NCBI GenBank assembly: GCA_017654855.1
Contig: CM030333.1
Coordinates: forward strand, 3,844,001 to 3,908,000
DNA length: 64,000 nt
Direction of reading: 5' to 3'
Source of the DNA: Podospora anserina
Lineage: Eukaryota
Made by a program: the position numbers and the translations under genes. Under the pieces are notes generated by a model. That model had not been told where the DNA came from. It made no database searches and saw nothing but the letters and a program-made list of their open reading frames with translations. Positions 30,207-45,215 of this stretch are shown here, in pieces. The stretch's first letter is position 1, and the number at the start of each line of letters is the position of its first letter.

Positions 30207-33063
30207 ATGGCCTCCGCCTCTCTGCTATCTCACAAAGCGGGCGGCACCAGCCAACACTCTGCAGCCCTCCTACCTTCAGACCAACCACCATCATATCAAG
30301 AAAAGAAAAGTTGACAATCAAAACTGGCCTTTTTCAAGACGAAAAGGGGCCTTCTCATTATCGTTCTCATACTTGTAATAATAGGTGGCGGGCTGGCAGG
30401 GTTGGCAGCTCTCCCAAAACACAATGACAATGGCTCCGAGGAAGCGTTGGATGGGGGGAGGATGATTCAGAAGGATGAGTATTTCTACGGGGGCTCAGAG
30501 CCGGTCTACCCCTCTCGTAAGTGGATGACTTTTTCTTTTTGGCGGTGACATGATGGAGTGAGAACTGACAGATATGGCATCGATAGCGGAAATGACTGGT
30601 TCTGGGGAGTGGAAAGAGGCTTTCAATAGAGCCAAGGAGTTTGTGGGCAAAATGACACTTGATGAGAAGGTATCCTACCGCCACGTCTGGATTTATTGTG
30701 ACGAACGAAACTGACAGGAAGCTCAGATCAGCCTCACTTCAGGAACCAACTCCGAGACCTCTTGCCCTGGCTTCTTGCCTGCCATCTCACGCCTAAAATT
30801 CCCGGGTATGTGTCTGGCTGATGCTGGACAGGGTGTCAGAGGAACAGATTTTGTTAGCAGCTGGCCGAGTGGCATTCATGTTGGGGCCAGCTGGAACAAG
30901 GAACTCACTCTGGCAAGGGGCAAAGGTATGGGTGGTGAGTTCAGAACGAAGGGCGTCAACATTCTTCTGGGACCTGTAGTTGGGCCAGCTGGACGGGTTG
31001 TCAGTGGTGGAAGAAATTGGGAGGGCTTTGCCAGTGACCCTTATCTGTCCGGCGTGTTGGTTGGTGAGACTGTCAAGGGGATTCAGGGAGTTGGGGTTGT
31101 CGCCAGCACAAAGGTATGTTATTATCTCGAAACTTCAAGTTGACGCTGAGGCTGACGGCATATTCAGCATTTCATTGCCAATGAGCAAGAGACCAATAGA
31201 AACCCCAACAACGGTGTGGAGGCTGTCTCGTCAAATATAGATGACAGAACTATGCACGAGATTTACTTGTGGTAAGTGACGCGGAACTAACACTGCTAAA
31301 GAGCAAGCGTTGACGACGAAACCGCAGGCCCTTCCAGGATGCCGTACGCGCCGGAACGGGAAGCATCATGTGCTCCTACCAGAGGGTCAACAACTCGTAC
31401 GGCTGCGCAAACAGCAAGACGCAAAATGGACTGCTCAAGACTGAACTTGGGTTTCAGGGTGGCGTTGTGAGCGACTGGGGAGCTCAGCACGCCGGGGTTG
31501 CCACAGCTGAAGCAGGCATGGATATGGCTATGCCAAATGGCGGTGACTTTTGGGGCTCACATCTCGAAGACGCCATCAAAAATGGAACGGTGCCCGAAAG
31601 TAGGCTAGACGATATGGTCCTCAGGTATGTCGGGTGCATTCTCTCCGTGTGTGTGAAAAGTTGTTGACCCAAGCAGAACAATCGCTTCTTGGTATCAAAT
31701 GGGCCAGGACAATGACTTTCCTACGCCAGGTGTCGGTATGCCCAAGGACCTCACCAAGCCACATCGCATTATCGATGCAAGAAACTCTTCCTTCAAATCC
31801 ACTCTATTTGATGGTGCGGTTGAAGGTCACGTCCTGGTCAAAAACATCCGCAATGCCTTGCCGCTCAAGAGCCCCAAACTGCTGTCTATTTACGGCTACT
31901 CCGCCAAGAACCCCGACGAAAACAACCCAACAGATGGCCTCTCTCCCTGGCTGATGGGATCGGGATCCTTTGACTACCAGGAGTTTGGTGCAGGCTTCTT
32001 TGGCTGGTCAGGCGCAACACCAGGAACGACAGGCATTGCTTTTAACGGAACACTGTACTCTGGTGGCGGATCAGGGGCAACATCTCAGTCTCTTGCCATT
32101 TCACCGTATGACGCCATCCTTCAGCAAGCCTACGAGGACGATACAGCCCTCTTCTGGGACTTCCACAACGGCAAGCCGGCAGTGGATCCTGTCTCCAGCG
32201 CGTGTCTGGTATTCGGTAACGTCTGGGCTGCAGAAGGCGCAGATAGACCTGGCCTTCGAGACGATTACACCGACGAGCTGATCCTCCACGTCGCCAGCCA
32301 GTGCAACAACACTGTTGTGGTTTTCCATAATGCTGGTATAAGACTCGTTGAAGAATTTATCGGCCACCCCAACGTCACAGCAGTGATCTTTGCCCATCTC
32401 CCAGGACAAGCATCCGGGAAGGCGTTGGCATCTATCCTCTATGGAAAGGAGAACCCTTCAGGTAAACTGCCTTATACTGTTGCGCGCAACGAAGACGACT
32501 ATGGAGTCATGCTCAGGCCTGACAAGCCGGAGGGCATCTTCAAGTATTTCCCTCAGAGCAACTTTACCGAGGGTGTGTTTGTCGATTACAGGCACTTTGA
32601 CGAAAACAAGATCAAGCCTAGGTTTGAGTTTGGGTTTGGCCTGAGTTACACTACCTTTGGGTATTCCAATCTTGCTGTTGAGAAGGATGGCAACAGAAGC
32701 TTTGAGGAGTTTCCCAAGGGGAAGACTGTAGAGGGTGGTCAGGAGGACTTGTGGGATGCACTGGTTAGAGTGGAGGCTGAGGTTGAGAACAAGGGGGAGG
32801 TGGAGGGGAAGGAGGTTGCGCAGTTGTATTTGGGGATTCCGGGGACGAGAGAGGAAAAGGTACCTATGAGGCAGTTAAGGGGGTTTGAGAAAGTGTTGGT
32901 TGGGGTGGGGGAGACGAAGAAGGTGGTGTTTGAGCTGACGAGGAGGGATTTGAGTGTCTGGGATGTGAGGGCGCAGAAGTGGAGGTTGGGGAAGGGGGAG
33001 TATAACGTCGAGGTTGGGGGGAGTAGTAGGAATTTGCCTTTGTCTGGGAAGTTCACTGTGTAA
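30207..33063 (+). CDS. GH3 beta-glucosidase with N-terminal signal-anchor and C-terminal FnIII-like domain; in-frame TGA at codon 36 (30312-30314)
   Basis: Exon 1 (30207-30516) reads [55 protein letters not shown]. Downstream motifs: [37 protein letters not shown] (nucleophile Asp), [28 protein letters not shown]. Confidence 0.92.
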
Positions 33064-33752: not shown

Positions 33753-34832
33753 ATGCGTCTCTCCACCTCCCTTCTCGCCGCGGCGGGAGCTGTCCCCCTT
33801 GCAACCGCCCAGCTCCACGAGCTCGCCGTCAAGGCTGGCCTCCAGTACTTCGGTGCTGCGACTGACACCCCCGGCTTCCGCGAGCGCGAGCCCTACCCCG
33901 AATCTTATTCCCAATACGACGCCATCCTCGAAGACCCCAAGGAGTTCGGCCAGACGACTCCCACCAACGGCCAGAAATGGCTGTTTGTCGAGCCTGAGCC
34001 GGGCGTTTTCAACTTCACTGAGGGTGACTACGTTGCCAATTTGGCCAACAGGACTAACAAGATCCTCCGCTGCCACGCCCTCGTCTGGCACAGCCAGCTT
34101 GCCCCTTGGGTTGAGACCACCGAGTGGACCAAAGAGGGTTTGAGGGAGGCAATTGTCAGACATATCACCGAGGTGGCTGGGTATTACCGTGGCCGGTGTG
34201 CCCATTGGGATGTGTTGAATGAAGCCCTTGATGAAGACGGGACATACAGGAAGAGCGTGTTTTACAATGTGCTCGGGGAGGAGTACATCCGGCTTGCCTT
34301 TGAGACTGCTGCCAAGGTCGACCCAGAGGCGAAGTTGTACTACAATGACTACGGAATCGAGAGGCCGGCCAGTGTCAAGACTGCGGGCGCGGTGAGGCTG
34401 GTCAAGATGTTGAAGGATGCCGGGATCAAGGTTGATGGCGTGGGGATGCAGGCGCATTTGCATGCGGACAACCACCCGAGTGAGGCGGATTTGATCAACA
34501 CTATTGGGATGTATAAGGAGGTGGTGAAGGAGGTCGCGTTTACCGAGTTAGATGTGAGGATCAAGGTGCCGGTTGATGAGCAGAAGCTGCAGTGGCAGAG
34601 TGAGTGCTACCAGAAGGTTGTGGGGGCGTGTGTGAAGACGAAGGATGTTTGTGTGGGTATCACGATTTGGGACTTTTATGACCCTTTTAGCTGGGTGCCG
34701 CATGTGTTTCCGGGTAATGGGGCGAGTTTGTTGTGGTTTGAGGACTTTAGCAAGCACCCTGCGTATGATGGGATGGTGAACTACTTTGGGGAGTTGATTG
34801 AGGCCCAGGGTGGTAACGCTACGTGCTCGTAG
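33753..34832 (+). CDS. Secreted GH10 endo-1,4-beta-xylanase
   Basis: Signal peptide MRLSTSLLAAAGAVPLATA; motifs QKW, RCHALVWHSQL, WDVLNE (acid/base), LYYNDY, DGVGMQAH, FTELDV (nucleophile), GITIWDF. Confidence 0.96.
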   Translation: MRLSTSLLAAAGAVPLATAQLHELAVKAGLQYFGAATDTPGFREREPYPESYSQYDAILEDPKEFGQTTPTNGQKWLFVEPEPGVFNFTEGDYVANLANRTNKILRCHALVWHSQLAPWVETTEWTKEGLREAIVRHITEVAGYYRGRCAHWDVLNEALDEDGTYRKSVFYNVLGEEYIRLAFETAAKVDPEAKLYYNDYGIERPASVKTAGAVRLVKMLKDAGIKVDGVGMQAHLHADNHPSEADLINTIGMYKEVVKEVAFTELDVRIKVPVDEQKLQWQSECYQKVVGACVKTKDVCVGITIWDFYDPFSWVPHVFPGNGASLLWFEDFSKHPAYDGMVNYFGELIEAQGGNATCS

Positions 34833-35316: not shown

Positions 35317-35885
35317 TTTTGTCTCCATTTTTCGACTCCACTTGAAGTTATTGTGAGGTCTTGGCATTGTTGATGTGGTGGTGTTAGGTTGTATAGATAC
35401 TTGGGAGAATGTGAGATTCGGTATGAGTAGATATTTTGTAAAAACTAGGTGTCATATATTTTGGTTTTGAGACCCCTTCTGTTGCCGATCTTCATGGACA
35501 GGACTGTGTCTGGGGGTTGTAGGGGTCTAGGGCCTGGCAACGGACAGGTCTCGTAGATCTATAGAGATCTGTTGTGGTGAGCTAGAAATCCGTATACAAT
35601 ATCACAATGCTTGAAATTTTTCAGGAGCTTAGAGATTCATTGAGAAGGGTTGGGGCGTTCAATCGTTCAAAATCGGGTAGTCATCCTAGGGGGGTTGTAT
35701 GGGCCCACAATTAGGAAGATTTTTGAAGCTCAGGGGCTTCAGGGGGTGTTTGTCACCATGTAAACAAAGAGGAAATACAAGAGTGTTTGATGTATGCTAA
35801 TCCGAACCAATGCAATATAAAAATGAGAAACTTTTATGAGTACAACCGATCTGTTCCCTTTCCAAAAGAGTGCGCTCTGCCTTTT

Positions 35886-36409
35886 TCATGCCTTTGTATT
35901 TGCATTCCAAGTTCCAAACGTCATCGAGTCAATCTCCTGCTTTGCTCCCTCATGCAACACATTGGAATTAAAAGTATCGCCAACATGCTCAGCATTATCT
36001 GTTGTTGCAGTTGATATGTTCATCCGTGTCTGAATGGGGGATTCCATATCTCCGATGCTTTCTGGTCAGCTGGTCAGTACCAAGCGTGCGTGAGGCTGAA
36101 GTGATTCCTGTGTAACCAACCGAATGTCATGTTTTTCGCCTTTTGTTTTCCACCGTACATCACGTTCGAGTTCCAGCTGGTGCCAATCTGCTTTGGCCGA
36201 CGCAGGATTGCGTTTTGGATCTTGGCAGCAGATCCTTTTGGATATTTCCAGGCCAGTGTCGCAATAACGAGTCCCATTAGTGCGAGCACGGCCGTAGGCA
36301 CACCGACCGCGATTCCGACAACATCTGAAGTCGCCAGCCCTGCAGGTGCGGAGCTAGGCTGGTTCGTGGTGTTGGCCTCCGTGTCGATGGCGTCTGGTAT
36401 TGGGGCCAT
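35886..36409 (-). CDS. 154-aa single-pass membrane protein with two C-terminal amyloid-like pseudo-repeats (candidate NLR-coupled effector); exons 36409-36121, 36061-35886
   Basis: A 59-nt intron 36120-36062 (GTTGGT..ACTGAC..CAG) gives MAPIPDAIDTEANTTNQPSSAPAGLATSDVVGIAVGVPTAVLALMGLVIATLAWKYPKGSAAKIQNAILRRPKQIGTSWNSNVMYGGKQKAKNMTFESIGDMESPIQTRMNISTATTDNAEHVGDTFNSNVLHEGAKQEIDSMTFGTWNANTKA*. Recovering a second repeat in exon 2 supports the splice. Confidence 0.8.
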
Positions 36410-37749
36410 TGTTCGCAAGTGGGTGTGGTCATCAATGCCTAAGGAACTGTGACGTCTGCAGCCACCGACAAGGCTCCAGATGCTGCCTTGAAAGTGGATG
36501 AACGCAGAAGAAGCAGTGAGCAGGCTCTCGACCCATGGAGCGCACCTGGACGATAAATATGTGGTGTCGTGTGGAACGACTGCTTTGCTGACCATTCAGA
36601 AGATCTTCTGTACGTAGGAGCACAGAGACTTGACGTGGGAACATCGGTACCAATTAACAACGTCTTCATGTACGGTAGATTCTGTCGCCAATCAGCGGCA
36701 CTCACATGCACTGCCACGTCCTGTGCATGGAGCCCAACCGAAGCCTAGCCTGCTCCGACTACATACATCACGGCATTCGTATCAGGTCAACTGTTTAACT
36801 TGCCGGTTAGACGGAGTCCTCTTATCTGAGCCGATCATGTATAAATATGTTGTGGATCGGGCACAAGCCTGTGCAGTTTTGATTCCTGACACATGTGTCT
36901 GCTTATCATTGTTGGCTTTCCCTGCCTGTCCCACAGTACCTCCAGAATGAGCAATATCCCTACTAATCTCAAGAAGAAAGGAGTATATGGACTTGCTGAG
37001 ATGTCAACAACCACCGCCACGACCGTCATGCAGGAGCCCAGCTCTCAGTTCCGCGGCGACGGTAAAACATGGGACGGGTCAATAGTCAAGGTCAAAGCGA
37101 GTGATCCTGTTTACTATATAATCTACCCATTCTAGGTGTTTCTATCAATCCTAACCTAGGCCGCCCCTTAGACCTCACCAGATGCTTCTAAGCATAGAGG
37201 CAACGACGTCAGCTCATCTGTCAATTATGGCGGTCATCAGAAGGTGAAAAAGAGAATCAAGTTTGGTATGGCCCTTCCTCAGTTTCCTCAATTAAACCCC
37301 ATGTGAATGAACACTTATCTATCTTACCTATCATGCAGGTGCCTGCAATGAGAGTGAGCTCAAAATGGCTTTCAGTGCACCGATTGATCCGAAAGTCTCC
37401 GAGTCAACACACACTGGACATAATTACAAATCGAACGTTCTTTATGCTGGAGCTGAGCAGGAGGTTGATGAGCTTGTTTTTGAGTAAATGTGAAAATGTG
37501 TAGAAAGTATTGGATACCTGGCGTTCAAGATGGTATTAGGCGGTTTTTGTCGATAATTTGTTGAGTGAATTATGGAAGTCATTTCCTATGTCCAGTATAC
37601 GAACAATGAAAGGACATGATATCTTGATCTTACGTTACATGTGGATGATCGCGGCATTTGGCCACGATAGCCTGTGTACAACATAGATAGGCACCTGAGG
37701 GCATGTCGCTCAAGATGATTATATCTTCGTTATCGCACAGCCGGATCCA

Positions 37750-40700
37750 CTACCCACTATTTATCTGGTCGTACGGCGGACGGATTTCCTCAAATCGATG
37801 CCCAGGATGCAGTCTCTTTCCTCGACCCTCGCACTTGAAACAGTAGTTGAAGAAGAGTAAATCGTGATAGCATGTACGGCAATGAAATCGGATCCCATGT
37901 ATCAGCTTCATCCCTTTTCTGTTAGAAATCCACGCACCATAGCAGCTTGCAGAGAAGATTGGCGTACCCTGAGACAACTGTCACAAACATAATCCTTGTG
38001 CATAAGACCTGCACTCCACCAATGCCATTCGGACTGTGGAAAGACGTTTTCTCCTGTCTGCTTTCCCTCCAGAAGTGGCAGAAGGTCTCGATGCCCATGG
38101 TATATCGCAATACGGGCTGGTGGCCATTTGTTGTCGTCAGGCATTCTACCCTCTCTCAAACATACACCTCGCAGCTTTTCCACCACTTTCTTCTCCCCAG
38201 CCTTAGCCGCCCAGTGTAAAGCAGTCCAGCCGTCATCATCTGTCTCAGTAGGATCAACTTCCGGATGCTGTTCAAGCAGTTTCTCCACTACAGATAGCGA
38301 GCCACCTGATGCTGCAGCATGCAATGCGTTTCGGCCATGGTTATCCTTGGCGTTGGCTTTGTACCCTAACTTGAGGAGCTTCCCAACCATCTTGTCCTGT
38401 CCGCCCAGGGCAGCAAAGTAGAGGGCAGTACGCCCATACGCATCTTTCTCATGTCGCATAGAAGGCTCTTGTTGCCAACATGCGTCAAAGACTATATCCT
38501 CGCCGCCGAATGAAGCAGCATTTAGTATGGAACCGAAAACAGGGTGTTTGTTGTAGAGACTGGCACCCTTTCTCAGCAAGATTGTGGCAATATCAGAATG
38601 GCCTCGTCCAGCCGCAAGTGGCAGGGCGGTTATTCCAAGCTTGGCGTGCAAGAAAATGTCAACGGGAATGTCGAAGTCCACAAGCACTTGTACTACTTCC
38701 GTATGCCCTTCGCACGTCGCATAGCGCAAGGCAGTTGAACTGGCGGGGGCGCCCTTTTCAAGAAGCATACGCACAATCTCGTGGTATCCGTTGAACGCCG
38801 CCACAGTTAGTACTGTGTGTGGTTTATCCGGGGGGGCATTCCAATCTGCGCCGTTTCTGAGGAGCACCCTGACGATGTTTATGTGCCGAGCCCACATCAG
38901 AGGAGGGTATCCGCAGTTGGCGAGGATATTAACATCCGCACCATTAGCCAGTAATAACTCAACCACGCCCAGATTGTTCTGATATACAGCAAAATGGAGA
39001 GCTGAAAACCCATTGGCCTCACAATCGTTGACTCGGCAGCCAATATCCAGCGCCAGCCGAGCCATTCTCTGGTCCGAGAGAAAGGCTGCGGCATGGAGTG
39101 CAGTGTGCCCTGAGACCGGCGCGAGATTCTTGAATTCTGCACCCTGATCAAGTAGAAACTCAACGGCGTCGTGTTGCCCCATCTGGATTCCCCAGAGCAA
39201 GGGAGTTCCGCAGCAAATCATGGGCATGGGCCATTCCAACTCTGACGTTACTTCGCTATCATGCGCTTGAAACACTGTCTTGAGGAATACATTGAGAGGA
39301 CCCGTCGCGCAAATTTCCATATCGGCATTTCTCTGCAGGAGCAAAGTGACAGCAGCAAGGTTACCTTTGGCCATGGCATGGTGCAAGGCGGTGTCTCCGT
39401 GAGAACTGGTTTTATTCACATCTGCTCCGGCCAGAAGAAGAGCCCTCACCATACGTTTGCCGTCGTAGTCTGCTGTTTTCTCCTTGGTGCCATCACTGTC
39501 TGGCCACCAGGAATGACTGGGGTCGGGCCTAGCCTTGATTTGCTCTGTCCTTCCAGTTTGCGGGATATCCGAGTTCTTGACCTTGCAGTGTGGAATATTT
39601 GAGTTGTGAATATGATCATGAAGGAGAGAATAAATTAGGAGATTGAATTCGCACATGCAGGCCGCCTGAAGAGGAGTGTGTGTGGTTGCTTCCGTTTCTG
39701 TGGGCGCTTGGTGCTGAATAAGAAGATCAACCATGAGCTCAAAACACTTATACGCGGCCGCTTTCAGGTCGTTGTGAACTTGTTCCACGTCCCGATCCAA
39801 ATCGTCGACCAATCTTCGTGTCGAGCTGACCCATTGTGCAAATTCCGATGAGGCCGACAACCGCTCAGAAAAGTCCAAAGCGGAGGGTGTTTGAGGCTTC
39901 TTGTGGAAAATGTTCCGCAACGGTGTACCCCAGTAATTGTAAATCCGGTGTAGCCACGTCAATAGAGTGCTCTGAGTCCCATTGTCTGGGACAGACTCCA
40001 GCACCAGTTCCGAATCCTGTCTGGACTCTAGATACTCGAGTACATGTCTGTACCAGTTGTTGATGGCATACTCAAGAAGCGGCCGTCTTTGGAGGTCACA
40101 TTCCAGTACTTTCCCGCCATCAACTTCGTCCTCATCAGATTCATGTAAGGTGTGGTCATCCGTATTGACAACACATTCGTTGATATACTCGAGACATTGA
40201 TTGGCCATCATGAGGTGAACCACAGCCAGTCCACCACACCTATCCGCTTTGTTCACGAGGTATTCCTCCAGGCTGGAAAAGGCAAAATCCACGATTTGCT
40301 TGCCGTCTCGGTCTGGAGACTCTGGAAAAGCCACTAGACTGCCAAAGCTATGGCGAATGGAGACTGAATTCTTTTTGTTTGTCTGACCCCAGTTGATCAA
40401 GTCCTCGAATTCGACGAATCTCAACGGCCGGAGGGTGCACATGAGCCATTGGAGAGATAGATAGGCATTGGGCATGACGCATATTCTTTCCAAGGCTTTA
40501 TCGTAGAAAGCATTGATCTCTTTCGGGATCTCATTCAATGCATCAAGTACCTCCTCCTCATCGGGGGCTGGGTCCCTTCGCCGAATGAATTCGTGAAATT
40601 CAGGATCCAACAGCCGTAATTTGACTAAACCGAAGCTATTGATCCAGTTCCAGGTTAGCTTTCGATCACTTCTCAAAACTGCTTCTCGGTAGGTGGTATT

Positions 40701-42193
40701 TGGTGCAAAACAGATTGTGTTGAGCCAGTTGGTCATCTTTGCATACTACCTAGGTAGGTAGGTATATGGAGATAGACTTACATTCCGTCTGAATTGTCCA
40801 CCAAATTTTTTTTGATGATCTCAATCCACTCCGGATGTTTTCTTCTGATTATTCCCCAGTTCGACTTTTTTAGCTCCTGGTCAACCATCAACTCGATGCC
40901 GTTCGTGTGGGCGATCCCTTCCACTGCAACGTCGAATCCCCCTTCACGATCGTGACTCAGGTCCCAGCATCGGTCCTCGAGAGCCGTGTCTACATGATCT
41001 CTGCTCACGACAAGGATATGGACAGGATCATGAGATTTGAGGCACTCAAGTAACTCGAATAAGACTGCCAGCGAGTCTTTTCCATTGGGTGACTCTGTAA
41101 GAGAATCCAAGCCATCAATTACGAGGTACACCTGCCCTCGTTCCTCGGCTAGACATCGTATCGCATACTTTAGGAGCGTGTAATCAAGACTGCCGGTCTT
41201 CTTGAACTCTTGCCGCACTTTCTGCACTCCCTTGGGCAACTGGGATAGGCCTTCGCATAGTTGTCGAAGCCATGATCTTAAGAGTCGTTCTGGAAAGGAT
41301 TCTTGGCGGCTTTCGCCCTCAGAAGGTTTGATACAAAACTCGTTAGAATCGAGGTAATAGTAAGCGACTATCGGGACTCCATCGGTAGCTTCTTGTTCAA
41401 GTTCTTCGATGATCGATGCACTGAGGTAATGTTAAAGAACTTCCAAAGAAGTGTACATGGAATTGCGAGTAACAAGCGACAGCAAGGGATTCGTTCGACT
41501 TACCACAATACAGTCTTCCCGCAAAAGTGCTTTCCATGAAGCCAAAGAAAGCTTTTGGGACAAACTTTCCATTTCTTGAATGCGTCCAAATTCAGAAGCC
41601 AAGACACTGTACCCTCGGTTCGGCTTTCCAAAGCTCTCTCATGTGCTGTGCGATGGTCGAACTTCGACAGCCAGTCAAGAGGTTGTTTGTCTGCAAGAAA
41701 GTCTGGGTCTTCATGTCAAGCATTAACACTCCAGAATTAGCAGATAGAAACATGAAAGCTCTCAAGGTCAGTAAGTGTAACTTACCATTCGGCTGTGCAC
41801 CTGTTCGATGACCCTTTGTCACGAGATTCATGACCCCTATCCGTTGGTATCCCATGTTGCTGTTGGAGTGAACATTATGACCACTATGCTGCATCTGTCG
41901 AGCCTGGAAATTATCCTGCCAATATTCGGGACCTTCAGCGGACTTTTAGGGTGTCAGACCCAGCATAATGCCCGGTATTTAGTATACAGGTGTCAGGTGT
42001 GACTTACCAAGGTCTCCTCACACTCCAGTCTTTCGACATCTTGATCAAGCGTGTTACTTTTTGGTTGAACTTCAGAAGAGTGTAAATTGGCCGAGAGCAA
42101 ATGTGGCGGAAGCGAAGGGGAGCTTTGGGGGGTGGATGGCGGGGGCGAGGGAGGGCGAAACGGTTGAGATGGTAAGCTCAAACTTGCAGCCAT
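37750..42193 (-). CDS. Fungal NLR: short N-terminal amyloid-like motif, NACHT, ankyrin repeats, ZZ-type zinc finger; exons 42193-42008, 41942-41786, 41690-41504, 41420-40782, 40635-37968, then about 37906-37750
   Basis: Spliced product has LDWLSKFDH..RTEGTVSWLL..FKKW..FLWLHGKHFCGKTVL (P-loop), YLVIDGLD (Walker B), LQWLMCTLRPL, LLEYAINNWYRH, multiple G.TALH.AA ankyrins and CDSC..IHGIRFHCRTC..YCFKC..HPGHRF. Confidence 0.9.
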
Positions 42194-42802
42194 TTGGACT
42201 GATTACAATTTTCTGAGAGTATGTGAGAATAAAGGGGAGTAAACTATAATCAAGAAAGCAGATTCTGGCCCTCATAAAACATTGGAATGTGGTTGTTTTG
42301 TCTGATCAGGCGATGTCCAAGATGTGACAAGTTCGAGCGATTTGGAAGTTTCCTGTGGTAGTCACAAAGGTGAGCTGCCCTGTTGTCTGCCTTGGAACAA
42401 GGCAACCCCCAATTTTCCTTCTTTTATTTCTGATTGGCCTTGAATGGCAAGGCATAATAATGTGGCTGCATAAAATTGCATCTGGCTGAACGTGAGGCAT
42501 CCAACTTCTCGCCGATTGACGTCCCATTCTGTGATGGGTCGCCCAAGGGTACGGCGCAGCCTTTTCCGTCCCTCTACATCCATTATTAACTTATATCGAC
42601 CCTACATTCTTCACTTCCTAGCATCGATTTCACTTTTCTAGGTATCCAGGAAGTACTGTCCAGTTCTCCACCATTTTGTCACCATTCACCTTTCCTACAA
42701 GACACCTCACATTTTTGTTATTAGACAGCCTTGTGGTTGTCGAGTAGAACTCCACATCGACGACGACGATACAACGACCGTTCGAATTTTTGACTTGGAG
42801 CT

Positions 42803-45215
42803 ATGTCTTCTGAGGAGACTAAGGTGGTTGCCACGCCTGAACCTGGCGAGCAGTGCGATGTCAAACACCTCAAACGCAGCTATGTGGATGGAAGCAATGA
42901 CCCGGTGGTTACCGAGGGTGACTCGGATCCGGTCAAAAAGGAGGAAGACACAAAACATCAGTCATTTGCCCTAGTGTCGACACAAAACTTCGATAAGGAT
43001 AACAATCGCACCGATACAACGCTTTTGATCAATTCCAAGCACATACTCGCCGCTCTCACAAGGGTAGTTCGTTACTATCCCGACCAAGACGAGGAATTCG
43101 ACAAACCCTCTGAGCTGACATCACCATTCAATCTTCTCTATCATCATCGCAAGGAGCTTTCTGAGGAGGCTGCTAGGGTAGGCGGTGACGGTGCCCTCCA
43201 TCTCAACCTTCTCCTGAGCTACCTTGACAAGCAGAAGTGGGCCGAGGCCGAGACACTCACAGCTCGAGAGAATCCTGTCATTACATTTGATCTACTTTGG
43301 TTCGTTTTTAAACCCGGCGACTTGCTATACAGGATGGTAAACGGCGAGCCTGCTTTGTACTGGCTTGTGAGCGTGTGCTATGACGAAACGCCAACAACAG
43401 GAGATTCATGGAAATACCTCGAGCTTGAGTGTCTATATCAAGCACACGACGGAAAGAAAACGGGTGTGGTGCGGGAAAGTCTCAAAATATACGAACACCA
43501 GGAATTTGCGGGCGATACCCCCGAGAAGATTACAAGCCTCTCAGTCTTTCCGCTAAAGTACCACAAAGACAGAGAAGGAATAAAAGAACGCCTTGTGAAG
43601 CGCGGACAACGATATTTGGAGCTTGTGCAAAAGCAGGGCCAAGCATATCATTACGAAGGTCTATGCAGAAGGCTTAAAACACCTCCTGGGGGCTCATACT
43701 TTTCCAGCGAAGAAAAATTTATTGGCGTCTGGCTCCCAGAAACAGTGAGTTGCCCTCATATCCGCTAGCAACCCAGCTTTGCTAAAAGATTACCATAAGG
43801 CTACCGGAAGAGTCGTCTTAGACTGTTCAACATTCATGGAAGATAATCCTTTCCACCGCGTCAATGTTTCCAATTGGAGCATCTCGAAAGGTCAGTAAAC
43901 ATACCATATGTTACCATGATAATACTGCTTGCAGCCTCTAAAGAGTCCAGTGGCTGAAGCAAGAGAGTCTAGACAAAACAACCGATGGCTTCGATGACCC
44001 TACACTACTCTGTCTGCCATATGTCTATGGATATTCTCTGGACATGCGATGCTGGTGTATGTTCTCTGTAGACAAGGTGAAGACGGCCGACTGGAAACAT
44101 AAAGACTTTGATTCGGTTGTCCTTCCGGATGGATATAGGAAGATCATCACATCACTTGTTAAAAGTCACAAATTCGCCAGTCATACCCGAGATGAGACTG
44201 CCCTCAAAGGCAAGGGTCTGATATTTGTTTTGCATGGCCCTCCTGGGACTGGCAAAACAAGAACAGCTGGTGAGTTGCGCTTCACATGCGTTCTGTCAAA
44301 GTATTTTTGTGCCGTGGCAGCCATAGAAGTTACTCCGTACTGACAGTCATGACAGAAGCAATTGCCGAGACAACCTCAAAGCCGCTCTTGCTATTCCCAA
44401 CCGGAGAACTCGGGGGTGATCTCAGAAGCATTCAGTCAGAGCTGAGGCGGCTAGTTAGATACGGCACTGCATGGAAGGCCATTCTACTTATCGATGAGGC
44501 GGATGTATTTCTGGAATCCAGACAGGTTGACGGACATGTGTCGTTGGAGCGTAATGCTCTCGTAGCAGGTAAGCAGAGGCTTTTCCCCAAGATAGCTTTG
44601 GTAAAGCATCCATAAACACGCTAACGCTTTTCCGTAACGCGAACAGTTTTCTTGAGGCAGCTCGAGTATTTCCAGGGCATCATATTTCTGACCTCTAACC
44701 GCGCCCAAATGTTCGATCCCGCAGTCAAGTCCCGCATCAACGTTATGCTGCACTACCCCTCGCCCGACAAAGAAACGCGAAAGGTGTTGTGGGCACAACG
44801 GCTTGGACCAATATTGAAACTCAAATCCTTGCCAAGATGCGAACTGGATCTAAATTCAGCAACGGAGACACTGTCGGAGTATGAGATGAACGGTCGGGAG
44901 ATTTCAAATGCTGTCAACTCGGCTTTGACCATAGCCAAAGCTGATACGCTCACCCTTAACATGGACCACCTTCGGTCTGTGGCAAAAATATGGAAAGACT
45001 CACAGGAAAAGAGCGTCGAAGTGGGACCAGTTGTGGACGCAGTTCAGGAGATCAAAAGGATTCCGTCTATCAGTGAGGTTCTTAGGACACTTAAAATCCC
45101 GCTTTGGGTCTGGAAACTATTCGTTTCAGCATTCCTTGCTGGCGCTCTATTTCAAGGGTCCCTTAAAATCTTTAAGGCAAGGATAAGGTGGCGAGGGCGT
45201 CGAGCTCACAGGTGA
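42803..45215 (+). CDS. Fungal AAA+ ATPase, multi-exon, with hydrophobic C-terminal tail
   Basis: ITFDLLWFVFKPG, KGKGLIFVLHGPPGTGKT (Walker A), ILLIDEADVFLE (Walker B), LERNALV..FLRQLEYFQGIIFLTSNR..FDPAVKSRI, MNGREISN; tail LWVWKLFVSAFLAGALF. Confidence 0.92.

Follow-up and report, generated by a model that had tools for sequence, protein, structure and literature searches.

A 64,000-nucleotide stretch of Podospora anserina DNA (GenBank assembly GCA_017654855.1, contig CM030333.1, forward-strand positions 3,844,001 to 3,908,000; hereafter the window, whose own coordinates are used throughout) carries three neighboring genes that are considered together here. Pa_2_10290 (gene A) encodes a small membrane protein with a repeat-bearing tail, Pa_2_10300 (gene B) a soluble paralog with the same repeats, and Pa_2_10310 a nucleotide-binding oligomerization domain-like receptor (NLR). 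Gene A is a real, expressed gene, and its product is a minimal single-pass membrane protein. Its transmembrane (TM) module belongs to an undescribed and uncharacterized family of small membrane proteins of the Pezizomycotina. With a probability of roughly 45%, we further propose that Pa_2_10290 is the final, membrane-resident part of an NLR relay of amyloid type, which may reach it through the soluble paralog. The features of gene A are as follows.

36409..35886, minus strand: coding sequence of gene A (Pa_2_10290), from the first base of the ATG to the last base of the stop codon; two exons and one intron.
36409..36121, minus strand: exon 1, encoding residues 1-96 and ending with base 1 of codon 97; covered by contigs in four of four runs.
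36120..36062, minus strand: intron of 59 nt, GTTGGT...CAG, phase 1, placed directly after the F of repeat 1.
36061..35886, minus strand: exon 2, residues 97-154; stop codon TGA at 35888..35886.
35784..36624, minus strand: approximate extent of the transcript, from contig ends; adapter-like loose ends at 35784.
36323..36409, minus strand: predicted extracytosolic N-terminus, residues 1-29; acidic, with no K or R, four D or E, and the sequon N13-T14-T15.
36248..36322, minus strand: transmembrane helix, residues 30-54, VVGIAVGVPTAVLALMGLVIATLAW; G32xxxG36 and P38; from Kyte-Doolittle hydropathy and AlphaFold2.
36191..36247, minus strand: basic juxtamembrane stretch, residues 55-73, KYPKGSAAKIQNAILRRPK; K/R-rich and kept in two orthologs.
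36122..36190, minus strand: repeat r1, residues 74-96, QIGTSWNSNVMYGGKQKAKNMTF; from local alignment and repeat profiles.
35910..35984, minus strand: repeat r2, residues 123-147, VGDTFNSNVLHEGAKQEIDSMTFGT; from local alignment and repeat profiles.

Expression was assessed from contigs of four public runs belonging to four studies, whose run type (RNA) was guessed. Because eight introns across three genes are precisely removed in these contigs and kept in the window DNA, spliced mRNA is their simplest reading; genes A and B and the NLR gene are all represented in the same four transcript sets. The 36061/36121 joint (GT..AG on the minus strand, CT..AC on the plus strand) occurs in contigs of all four runs; a lack of expression would have counted against the putative effector proposed in an earlier sequence-only reading of this locus. 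Exon 1 is translated as MAPIPDAIDTEANTTNQ...KNMTF, and the translation of exon 2 terminates in ...SMTFGTWNANTKA ahead of the stop codon. The spliced product of 154 residues is letter for letter PODANS_2_10290 of P. anserina S mat+ (P0033), a protein annotated as uncharacterized; this identity assigns the window to P. anserina chromosome 2 or to a very close relative. A 71-nt form of the intron, with its acceptor at 36050, was weighed and ruled out, since all four runs use the 59-nt form. The chance that gene A is a spurious open reading frame (ORF) or a decaying pseudogene is practically negligible and already contradicted. The gene is small, and a word-indexed protein search with exon 1 gave no match; this blank is a sensitivity artefact, because a full HMMER scan recovered a family of 24 matches, and the gene is spliced in four transcript sets and shows region-specific constraint across three genera.

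The start codon at 36409 lies in a strong context (aacaATGgc) and agrees with the conserved family start M-A/P-P. The leader (36410-36624, minus strand) holds an in-frame ATG at 36595 and out-of-frame ATGs at 36536 and 36432, all three in weak context. A functional product of 216 residues starting at 36595, whose 62-residue basic extension would alter topology or targeting, is very improbable. That ATG is present in some transcripts, with contigs of two of the four runs extending to 36608 and 36624, and three sister-species records (P0005, P0030 and P0032) are annotated from it. Contigs of two of the four runs, however, stop downstream of it, at 36486 and 36480. Moreover, this ATG and the two other upstream ATGs have a pyrimidine at -3, whereas the ATG at 36409 has aacaATGg, and the Triangularia and Immersiella orthologs, together with nearly all family members, begin 8-40 residues ahead of the helix with the same start motif.

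The sequence-only reading had described a short acidic and polar N-terminus with an N-T-T sequon and no signal peptide, followed by one hydrophobic helix containing a GxxxG, a basic stretch and two repeats, in a protein that carries no HeLo, HELL, SesA, SesB or PNP domain. This description holds for the spliced product. The composition of residues 1-29 is as listed above; no hydrophobic stretch was seen ahead of residue 30, and a signal peptide was judged absent by inspection of the polar N-terminus. The helix at residues 30-54 has a mean Kyte-Doolittle value of 2.38 over 19 residues (2.38-2.44 across computations). An AlphaFold2 model of P0033, built on a 25-row alignment, places a helix at residues 27-55 with a predicted local distance difference test score (pLDDT) of up to 83, the sole part of usable confidence; the mean is 49.5 and the tail lies below 50. 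The 20 residues after the helix include six K or R and no D or E. In Pfam, no HeLo, Helo_like_N, HELL, SesA, SesB or PNP domain was found in Pa_2_10290, which gave sub-threshold matches in the TM region only. From these flanks Pa_2_10290 is predicted to be a type III (N-out, C-in) single-pass membrane protein, which is the orientation that the sequence-only reading had derived from charge.

The same bias extends across the family. When exon 1 was run with HMMER against 1.84 billion representatives, 24 proteins matched at E<=1e-3. Across these 24 members, the N-terminal flank contains 24 K/R versus 56 D/E, the first 15 residues past the helix contain 73 K/R versus 15 D/E, and an N-glycosylation sequon precedes the helix in 11 of the 24; these flank charges and sequons fit an N-out/C-in topology across the family. 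The consensus of the TM module reads G-L-x-T-S-D-I-I-G-I-A-V-G-V-P-S-x-V-L-A-L-x-x-V-I-I-A-F-x-A-W-x-Y-P. In the family alignment (A1, numbered after P0006), G37 is invariant, and conservation is 90% or higher at G33, I34, D30, W55 and P58. The module can be summarized as an acidic stub that is often glycosylatable, a helix containing the GxxxG and a proline, and a W-x-Y/F-P-K/R anchor. Those members that are named belong to Sordariales, Hypocreales, Xylariales, Botryosphaeriales (Lasiodiplodia) and Helotiales (Oculimacula) and are annotated as hypothetical without exception, and the family spans Sordariomycetes, Dothideomycetes and Leotiomycetes. Sub-threshold Pfam matches, confined to the TM region, were obtained to Podoplanin (6/24), Psg1 (4/24), SKG6 (3/24) and Mid2 (2/24); none of these four reached its gathering threshold, the best score being 22.4 bits against a cut-off of 30.

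The whole architecture is kept in three lineages: the Podospora cluster, Triangularia setosa (P0006, 66% identity) and Immersiella caudata (P0007, 53% identity). Its recurrence in the latter two indicates that the architecture of gene A is more than chance. For T. setosa and I. caudata, respectively, identity to gene A amounts to 19/25 and 16/25 in the TM helix, 15/19 and 10/19 in the juxtamembrane stretch, 17/23 and 14/23 in r1, and 18/25 and 17/25 in r2, compared with 15/29 and 11/29 in the N-terminus and 13/26 and 7/26 in the linker. The two repeats are thus more conserved than the linker between them. The remaining HMMER matches have only the N-terminal TM module in common with gene A. Behind this module stand tails of different classes, namely NSNV...TF repeats, glycine-rich R-G-G-D-A-x-G-G repeats (the majority), and others. 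Among 21 family tails, 11 contain a two-block internal repeat that at most 1 of 200 composition-preserving shuffles reaches, and in a further four tails 4-6 of 200 shuffles reach it. A conserved TM module combined with interchangeable repeat tails conforms to the modular pattern expected of an effector domain joined to signaling motifs; in the cited parts of the literature, fungal amyloid-controlled effectors combine HeLo or HELL domains with HRAM1-5, PP or sigma motifs (PMC5485727, PMC4518210, PMC9815663).

One member, P0009 of Trichoderma chlorosporum (397 residues), is predicted as one protein in which the TM module and one NSNV-type repeat are followed by a HET domain (PF06985, 2.8e-30). 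A correct gene model would tie the TM module to cell-death machinery, but a merged prediction is just as possible. A metagenome scan yielded six loci, of which L001 spans 5.1 kb and L002-L006 span 1.2-1.6 kb. On L002 (236-697), L003 (2-457) and L004 (362-748), all on the plus strand, a glycine-rich ORF with GGx runs (IQVQGGTGQGGVGHGGRGGAGGKGG...) precedes a TM-family gene with a GGDAxGG-type tail on the same strand. This ORF may represent a soluble partner analogous to gene B, on contigs that are too short to tell.

The two repeats themselves are well defined. Local alignment of r1 with r2 of gene A (about 24 residues) gives a score of 59, which none of 5000 shuffles reached. Their consensus is x-G-x-x-W/F-N-S-N-V-L/M-Y/H-x-G-x-K/R-Q-x-V/A-x-x-M/L-T-F. 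When the repeats of genes A and B are aligned, the same columns of r1 and r2 hold Asn, Gln, Gly and Phe, and a basic r1 stands opposite an acidic r2 in both genes (KQKAK versus KQEID and HQKVKK versus EQEVDE). The start-to-start spacing is 48 residues in genes A and B and 50 and 47 residues in two orthologs. Matched N/Q/G/F columns and charge complementarity between r1 and r2 are what in-register stacking of two rungs would require, in the manner of the inter-rung salt bridges described for HET-s (PMC4518210). A layout of two pseudo-repeats, ladder-type N/Q/G residues and charge complementarity are given as hallmarks of fungal signaling amyloids in the cited parts of PMC5485727 and PMC4518210.

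Comparison with the established motif classes gave a different picture for layout and for sequence. The layout of the HRAM class (two pseudo-repeats of about 21 residues, a flexible linker and a C-terminal position) is found in r1 at 74-96 and r2 at 123-147. For the HRAM signature as listed in the cited part of PMC4518210 (N/Q/H at position 3; hydrophobic residues at 5, 8, 10, 16 and 18; R/K at 15; G near 19), hand inspection found no fitting register in the repeats. The PP motif has the core G-hydrophobic-Q-hydrophobic-G (PMC9815663, in the portion cited). The repeats do not match it, reading G-G-K-Q-K-A and E-G-A-K-Q-E-I, nor does the conserved block of the NLR described below, where G-Y-Q-R-I-G is one residue too long by sequence reading. 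The PNP_UDP-associated PUASM pattern (FxGxGxQxxGxGxF; PMC9815663) was not found in gene A, gene B or the NLR block, and no PNP_UDP domain is present. An assignment of the tail to the HRAM, sigma, PP or PUASM motifs therefore failed in profile searches and pattern reading. The ESM Atlas returned sub-0.9 matches to unnamed Ascomycota clusters only, and the tail matched no named cluster.

Gene B lies on the opposite strand and carries two further copies of the repeat.

36947..37487, plus strand: gene B (Pa_2_10300), with exons at 36947..37096, 37172..37265 and 37339..37487.
37097..37171, plus strand: intron 1, GC..AG with donor GCGAGT; spliced in four of four runs.
37266..37338, plus strand: intron 2, GT..AG, phase 1, after the F-G of repeat 1; spliced in three of four runs.
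37196..37265, plus strand: repeat 1, RGNDVSSSVNYGGHQKVKKRIKF-G, residues 59-82 of P0037; from the repeat profile.
37413..37484, plus strand: repeat 2, TGHNYKSNVLYAGAEQEVDELVFE, residues 107-130; best non-self match of the NLR block.

A profile built from r1 and r2 of gene A, run against the 1965 six-frame ORFs of the window, detected two extra copies, both in gene B (E 2.8e-6 and 0.25); a 9-repeat profile found the gene B copies at E 7e-13 and 9e-12. The product has 130 residues in sister-species annotations (P0037 and P0041), no hydrophobic helix and no Pfam family. Intron position and phase after repeat 1 are identical in genes A and B. Given the same repeats, the same intron position and phase and the same 48-residue spacing, the two genes are paralogs in their C-terminal halves. 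They are divergently transcribed from a 537-bp spacer that contains TATAAATA at 36841. The S mat+ record of gene B (P0039) has 94 residues; its last intron is read through, with the result that the second repeat is lost, and the 130-residue sister-species model agrees with the spliced contigs. Residues 37-50 of gene B (about 37055-37096), GDGKTWDGSIVKVK, resemble a degenerate third half-repeat (compare GTSWNSNVMY), which the repeat profile does not detect.

The third gene is the NLR gene.

37750..42193, minus strand: NLR gene (Pa_2_10310), with a disordered N-terminus, an NPHP3_N/NACHT P-loop, ankyrin repeats and a C-terminal ZZ-type exon.
41943..42007, 41709..41785, 41421..41503, 40636..40781 and 37906..37967, minus strand: NLR introns; all five joints present in four of four runs.
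41820..41888, minus strand: N-terminal block HSGHNVHSNSNMGYQRIGVMNLV, candidate r0, at about residues 80-105 counted from the ATG at 42193.

Pfam identifies an NPHP3_N domain (1.7e-26) with the Walker A sequence GKHFCGKT and an Ank_2 region (8.4e-64), which places the protein among NACHT-type NLRs. It shares 97% identity with a 1336-residue protein of P. pseudoanserina (P0003, QC764_210310) and 66% with a protein of T. setosa. One RNA-supported splice joins an upstream exon containing the ATG at 42193. Pfam assigns no domain to the first ~146 residues. This region includes a block of 34 residues, QMQHSGHNVHSNSNMGYQRIGVMNLVTKDHRTGA, that is identical at about 30 of 34 positions between Podospora and Triangularia and lies just before NACHT, in poorly conserved Pro/Ser-rich surroundings. 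A short domain-less N-terminus with one conserved block is, by analogy, the anatomy of a motif-bearing NLR (compare PMC9815663, in the part cited).

Several further observations concern the NLR transcript and its records. The reference-strain record of the NLR looks truncated, and the 1336-residue sister-species model agrees with the spliced contigs. A 942-residue member of the NLR cluster (P0046) consists of the ankyrin part alone, and its start ATG lies inside the 40636..40781 intron. Between 37488 and 37905, contigs run continuously from gene B (plus strand) into the NLR gene (minus strand), so that the convergent transcripts overlap or abut at their 3' ends. Single-base differences from the window at 39357 (A>C), 39878 (A>G) and 39957 (C>T), in the ankyrin region, appear in all four runs and look like strain polymorphism.

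The relay proposed at the outset would operate as follows. In Podospora, genes A and B and the NLR gene would form a three-gene unit. The tail of gene A would be a two-rung beta-arch (amyloid) motif resembling that of HET-s but of a novel sequence class, with two pseudo-repeats and a variable linker, which would be unstructured as a monomer and would polymerize when seeded. An activated NLR oligomer would nucleate the beta-arch fold, most likely first on the soluble paralog Pa_2_10300, given that repeat 2 of gene B alone resembles the NLR block. The resulting polymer would recruit the tail of Pa_2_10290 and align its pre-inserted GxxxG helices in the bilayer. The helix array might then perforate or destabilize the membrane, as an executioner, or serve as a membrane-bound signaling platform. 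Amyloid fold, NLR templating, relay order and membrane effect are all inferred. Conservation of the helix in sequence (the invariant Gly, the GxxxG, the Pro and the W..P) suggests that the helix itself does something specific.

A more ambitious version holds that the locus is a fourth Podospora amyloid system, in which Pa_2_10310 acts through the adaptor Pa_2_10300 on Pa_2_10290, amyloid stacking (~9.4 A for each two-rung subunit) draws the helices together into a ribbon that disrupts the membrane, and the TM module constitutes a new effector class. In this complete form we regard it as unlikely.

How far the NLR can be connected with the repeats was evaluated through similarity, gene order and motif searches. 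The genes are adjacent in the window and, to judge from their locus numbers, in sister species as well: the numbers 210290, 210300 and 210310 are consecutive in six sister species, and PODANS_2_10290 and _10300 are consecutive in S mat+. The block also shows some likeness to gene B. Shuffles reached its scores against gene B in 84 and 23 of 5000 cases, and the gene B repeat exons ranked third and fourth of the 1965 six-frame ORFs with the Podospora block and second and fourteenth with the Triangularia block; the likeness consists of HSGHNVHSN versus HTGHNYKSN at the start of repeat 2 of gene B. A considerable body of results weighs on the other side. The similarity to gene B is short and modestly significant at the sequence level. 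Against the repeats of gene A, the scores of the NLR block were reached by 1326, 1331, 1575 and 1467 of 5000 shuffles. The block was not recovered by the two-repeat profile and was neither among the 25 best rows of the 9-repeat profile nor below its E<=10. With the ATG at 42193, it lies about 80 residues in from the N-terminus instead of at the very end. In T. setosa, the orthologs of the NLR and of gene A are on different contigs (30,112 and 78,133 nt) and not adjacent, which means that linkage is documented only in the P. anserina species complex. On L001, which carries a family member, no NLR was present. Six of the 21 family tails showed no significant internal repeat. Pfam gave no match to HET-s_218-289 (PF11558), the sigma family or RHIM in gene A, gene B or family members (PF11558 thresholds of E<=10 for both exon products, E<=1 for P0033 and P0037, and E<=0.1 for the 24 family members), and neither a sequence relative nor a HET-s chain was found in the PDB at E<=10. 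The proposal of the sequence-only reading that the NLR templates Pa_2_10290 was not borne out by similarity between the block and the gene A repeats, and adjacency is what backs it. The link between Pa_2_10290 and the NLR is weakly supported.

The main rival view is that Pa_2_10290 belongs to a family of small repeat-tailed proteins, anchored in the plasma membrane or the secretory pathway and unrelated to the NLR, which would act in housekeeping or stress through another cytosolic partner or through self-association; adjacency would then be coincidental and gene B an anchor-less fragment of a tandem duplication. The non-significant similarity between the NLR block and gene A, the separate T. 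setosa contigs and the NLR-free neighborhood of L001 agree with it, as do the sub-threshold matches to the TM regions of Podoplanin, Psg1, SKG6 and Mid2, which are ordinary single-pass surface proteins. We nevertheless consider this view somewhat unlikely, in light of the two-pseudo-repeat ladder layout with charge complementarity that is typical of signaling amyloids, the short domain-less N-terminus of the NLR with its one conserved block, the placement of the gene B repeat exons at ranks 2-4 of 1965 by that block, and the fusion of the TM module and a repeat to a HET domain in Trichoderma. A different possibility accepts the amyloid connection and denies Pa_2_10290 the executioner role, casting it as an anchor or platform that tethers the polymer to a membrane where other factors signal (MAVS-like) or as a decoy that sequesters paralog seeds and dampens the pathway. 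It would suit a protein whose one helix is its only domain, the existence of a soluble paralog that carries the same repeats, and the finding that only this paralog resembles the NLR block. Yet the invariant Gly, the near-invariant GxxxG, the Pro and the W..P suggest that the helices make specific contacts with one another and are more than passive anchors, and no downstream signaling partner is evident in the cluster; we find such a role quite unlikely.

Among known systems, the pair NWD2/HET-S of P. anserina (the HRAM pair) is similar in layout. In both cases a small protein, whose C-terminus holds two pseudo-repeats (21-24 residues) and a flexible linker, is encoded beside an NLR that has one conserved block in a short N-terminus, the repeats have ladder residues and charge complementarity, and the membrane is the presumed target. 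Unlike HET-S, Pa_2_10290 has no HeLo domain, its helix is constitutively hydrophobic (Kyte-Doolittle 2.4) rather than released on activation, and its repeats do not match HET-s_218-289; the NLR block resembles the repeats weakly or not at all and does not stand at the extreme N-terminus. The PNT1/HELLP/SBP (PP) and HET-eN/SesA/SesB (sigma) systems are three-gene clusters according to the cited parts of PMC5485727 and PMC12881547, and they likewise consist of an NLR with two neighboring motif-bearing proteins. The Podospora partners differ in having no HELL, SesA or lipase domain, being a bare TM anchor and a domain-less protein, and their repeats show neither the G-h-Q-h-G core nor the ~40-residue sigma layout. 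In contrast to the HeLo, HELL, SesA and Bell bundles, which comprise ~80-200 residues and begin with a hydrophobic N-terminal helix, Pa_2_10290 has 29 residues before its helix and its repeats begin about 20 residues after it.

The nearest concept is Babybell. As described in the cited part of a preprint on Bell/Babybell (Bab-Agp; bioRxiv 10.1101/2024.11.07.622273), this bacterial module of about 80 residues has one hydrophobic N-terminal helix and a C-terminal amyloid motif, and it shares with Pa_2_10290 the principle of a very small membrane-targeting module centered on a single hydrophobic helix. In Babybell, a soluble bundle hides the helix until activation, whereas Pa_2_10290 has no bundle and its helix is predicted to be inserted from synthesis. 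SKG6, Mid2, Psg1 and Podoplanin resemble Pa_2_10290 in an outside segment that is short or rich in Ser/Thr, in a helix rich in Gly, Ala and Val, and in a basic flank on the inside; they differ in that scores fall below gathering cut-offs, homology does not extend beyond the helix and the tails are unrelated.

MAVS, in the animal RIG-I pathway, is an adaptor anchored in a membrane; an activated receptor templates its assembly into a prion-like polymer. It differs from Pa_2_10290 in having a CARD filament rather than a beta-arch amyloid, a C-terminal mitochondrial tail anchor and large signaling regions. To our knowledge, every amyloid-controlled executioner described so far, whether fungal or bacterial, buries its membrane helix in a soluble bundle until it is activated. 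If the proposed relay is correct, a constitutively membrane-inserted effector in Podospora, the model organism for the biology of amyloid signaling, would execute by another logic, nearer to that of MAVS-type membrane platforms. In the more ambitious version, a TM module recombined with several unrelated repeat classes across Pezizomycotina would represent a new, overlooked class of amyloid-controlled membrane effectors. Even if the amyloid reading is wrong, the analysis defines a family of small, repeat-tailed fungal membrane proteins that is widespread and as yet without a name.

In the full text of the literature, as distinct from its supplements, we found no TM-anchored fungal amyloid-motif protein and no mention of Pa_2_10290, Pa_2_10300 or Pa_2_10310; S1 Text or S6 Data of PMC9815663 may list the NLR N-terminus or its motif class. 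This gap may stem from search design and from reference-strain records in which both gene B and the NLR are truncated. Effector-side motif searches started from HeLo and HeLo-like proteins (Daskalov 2015, PMC4518210), and in Wojciechowski 2022 (PMC9815663) the reverse search proceeds from known effectors and the forward search needs large clusters of NLR N-termini, as set out in the cited parts of both papers. A bare TM-module effector would escape the published effector-side searches, since these begin from known effector domains or proteins.

Beyond the three genes, the far side of gene A carries genes of the GH3 (31699-33063) and GH10 (33753-34832) families. At the 5' end of the NLR gene, a multi-exon gene on the plus strand (42794-45215) encodes a DUF7025 domain (7.3e-22), a P-loop reading GPPGTGKT and a fungal AAA+ lid domain.

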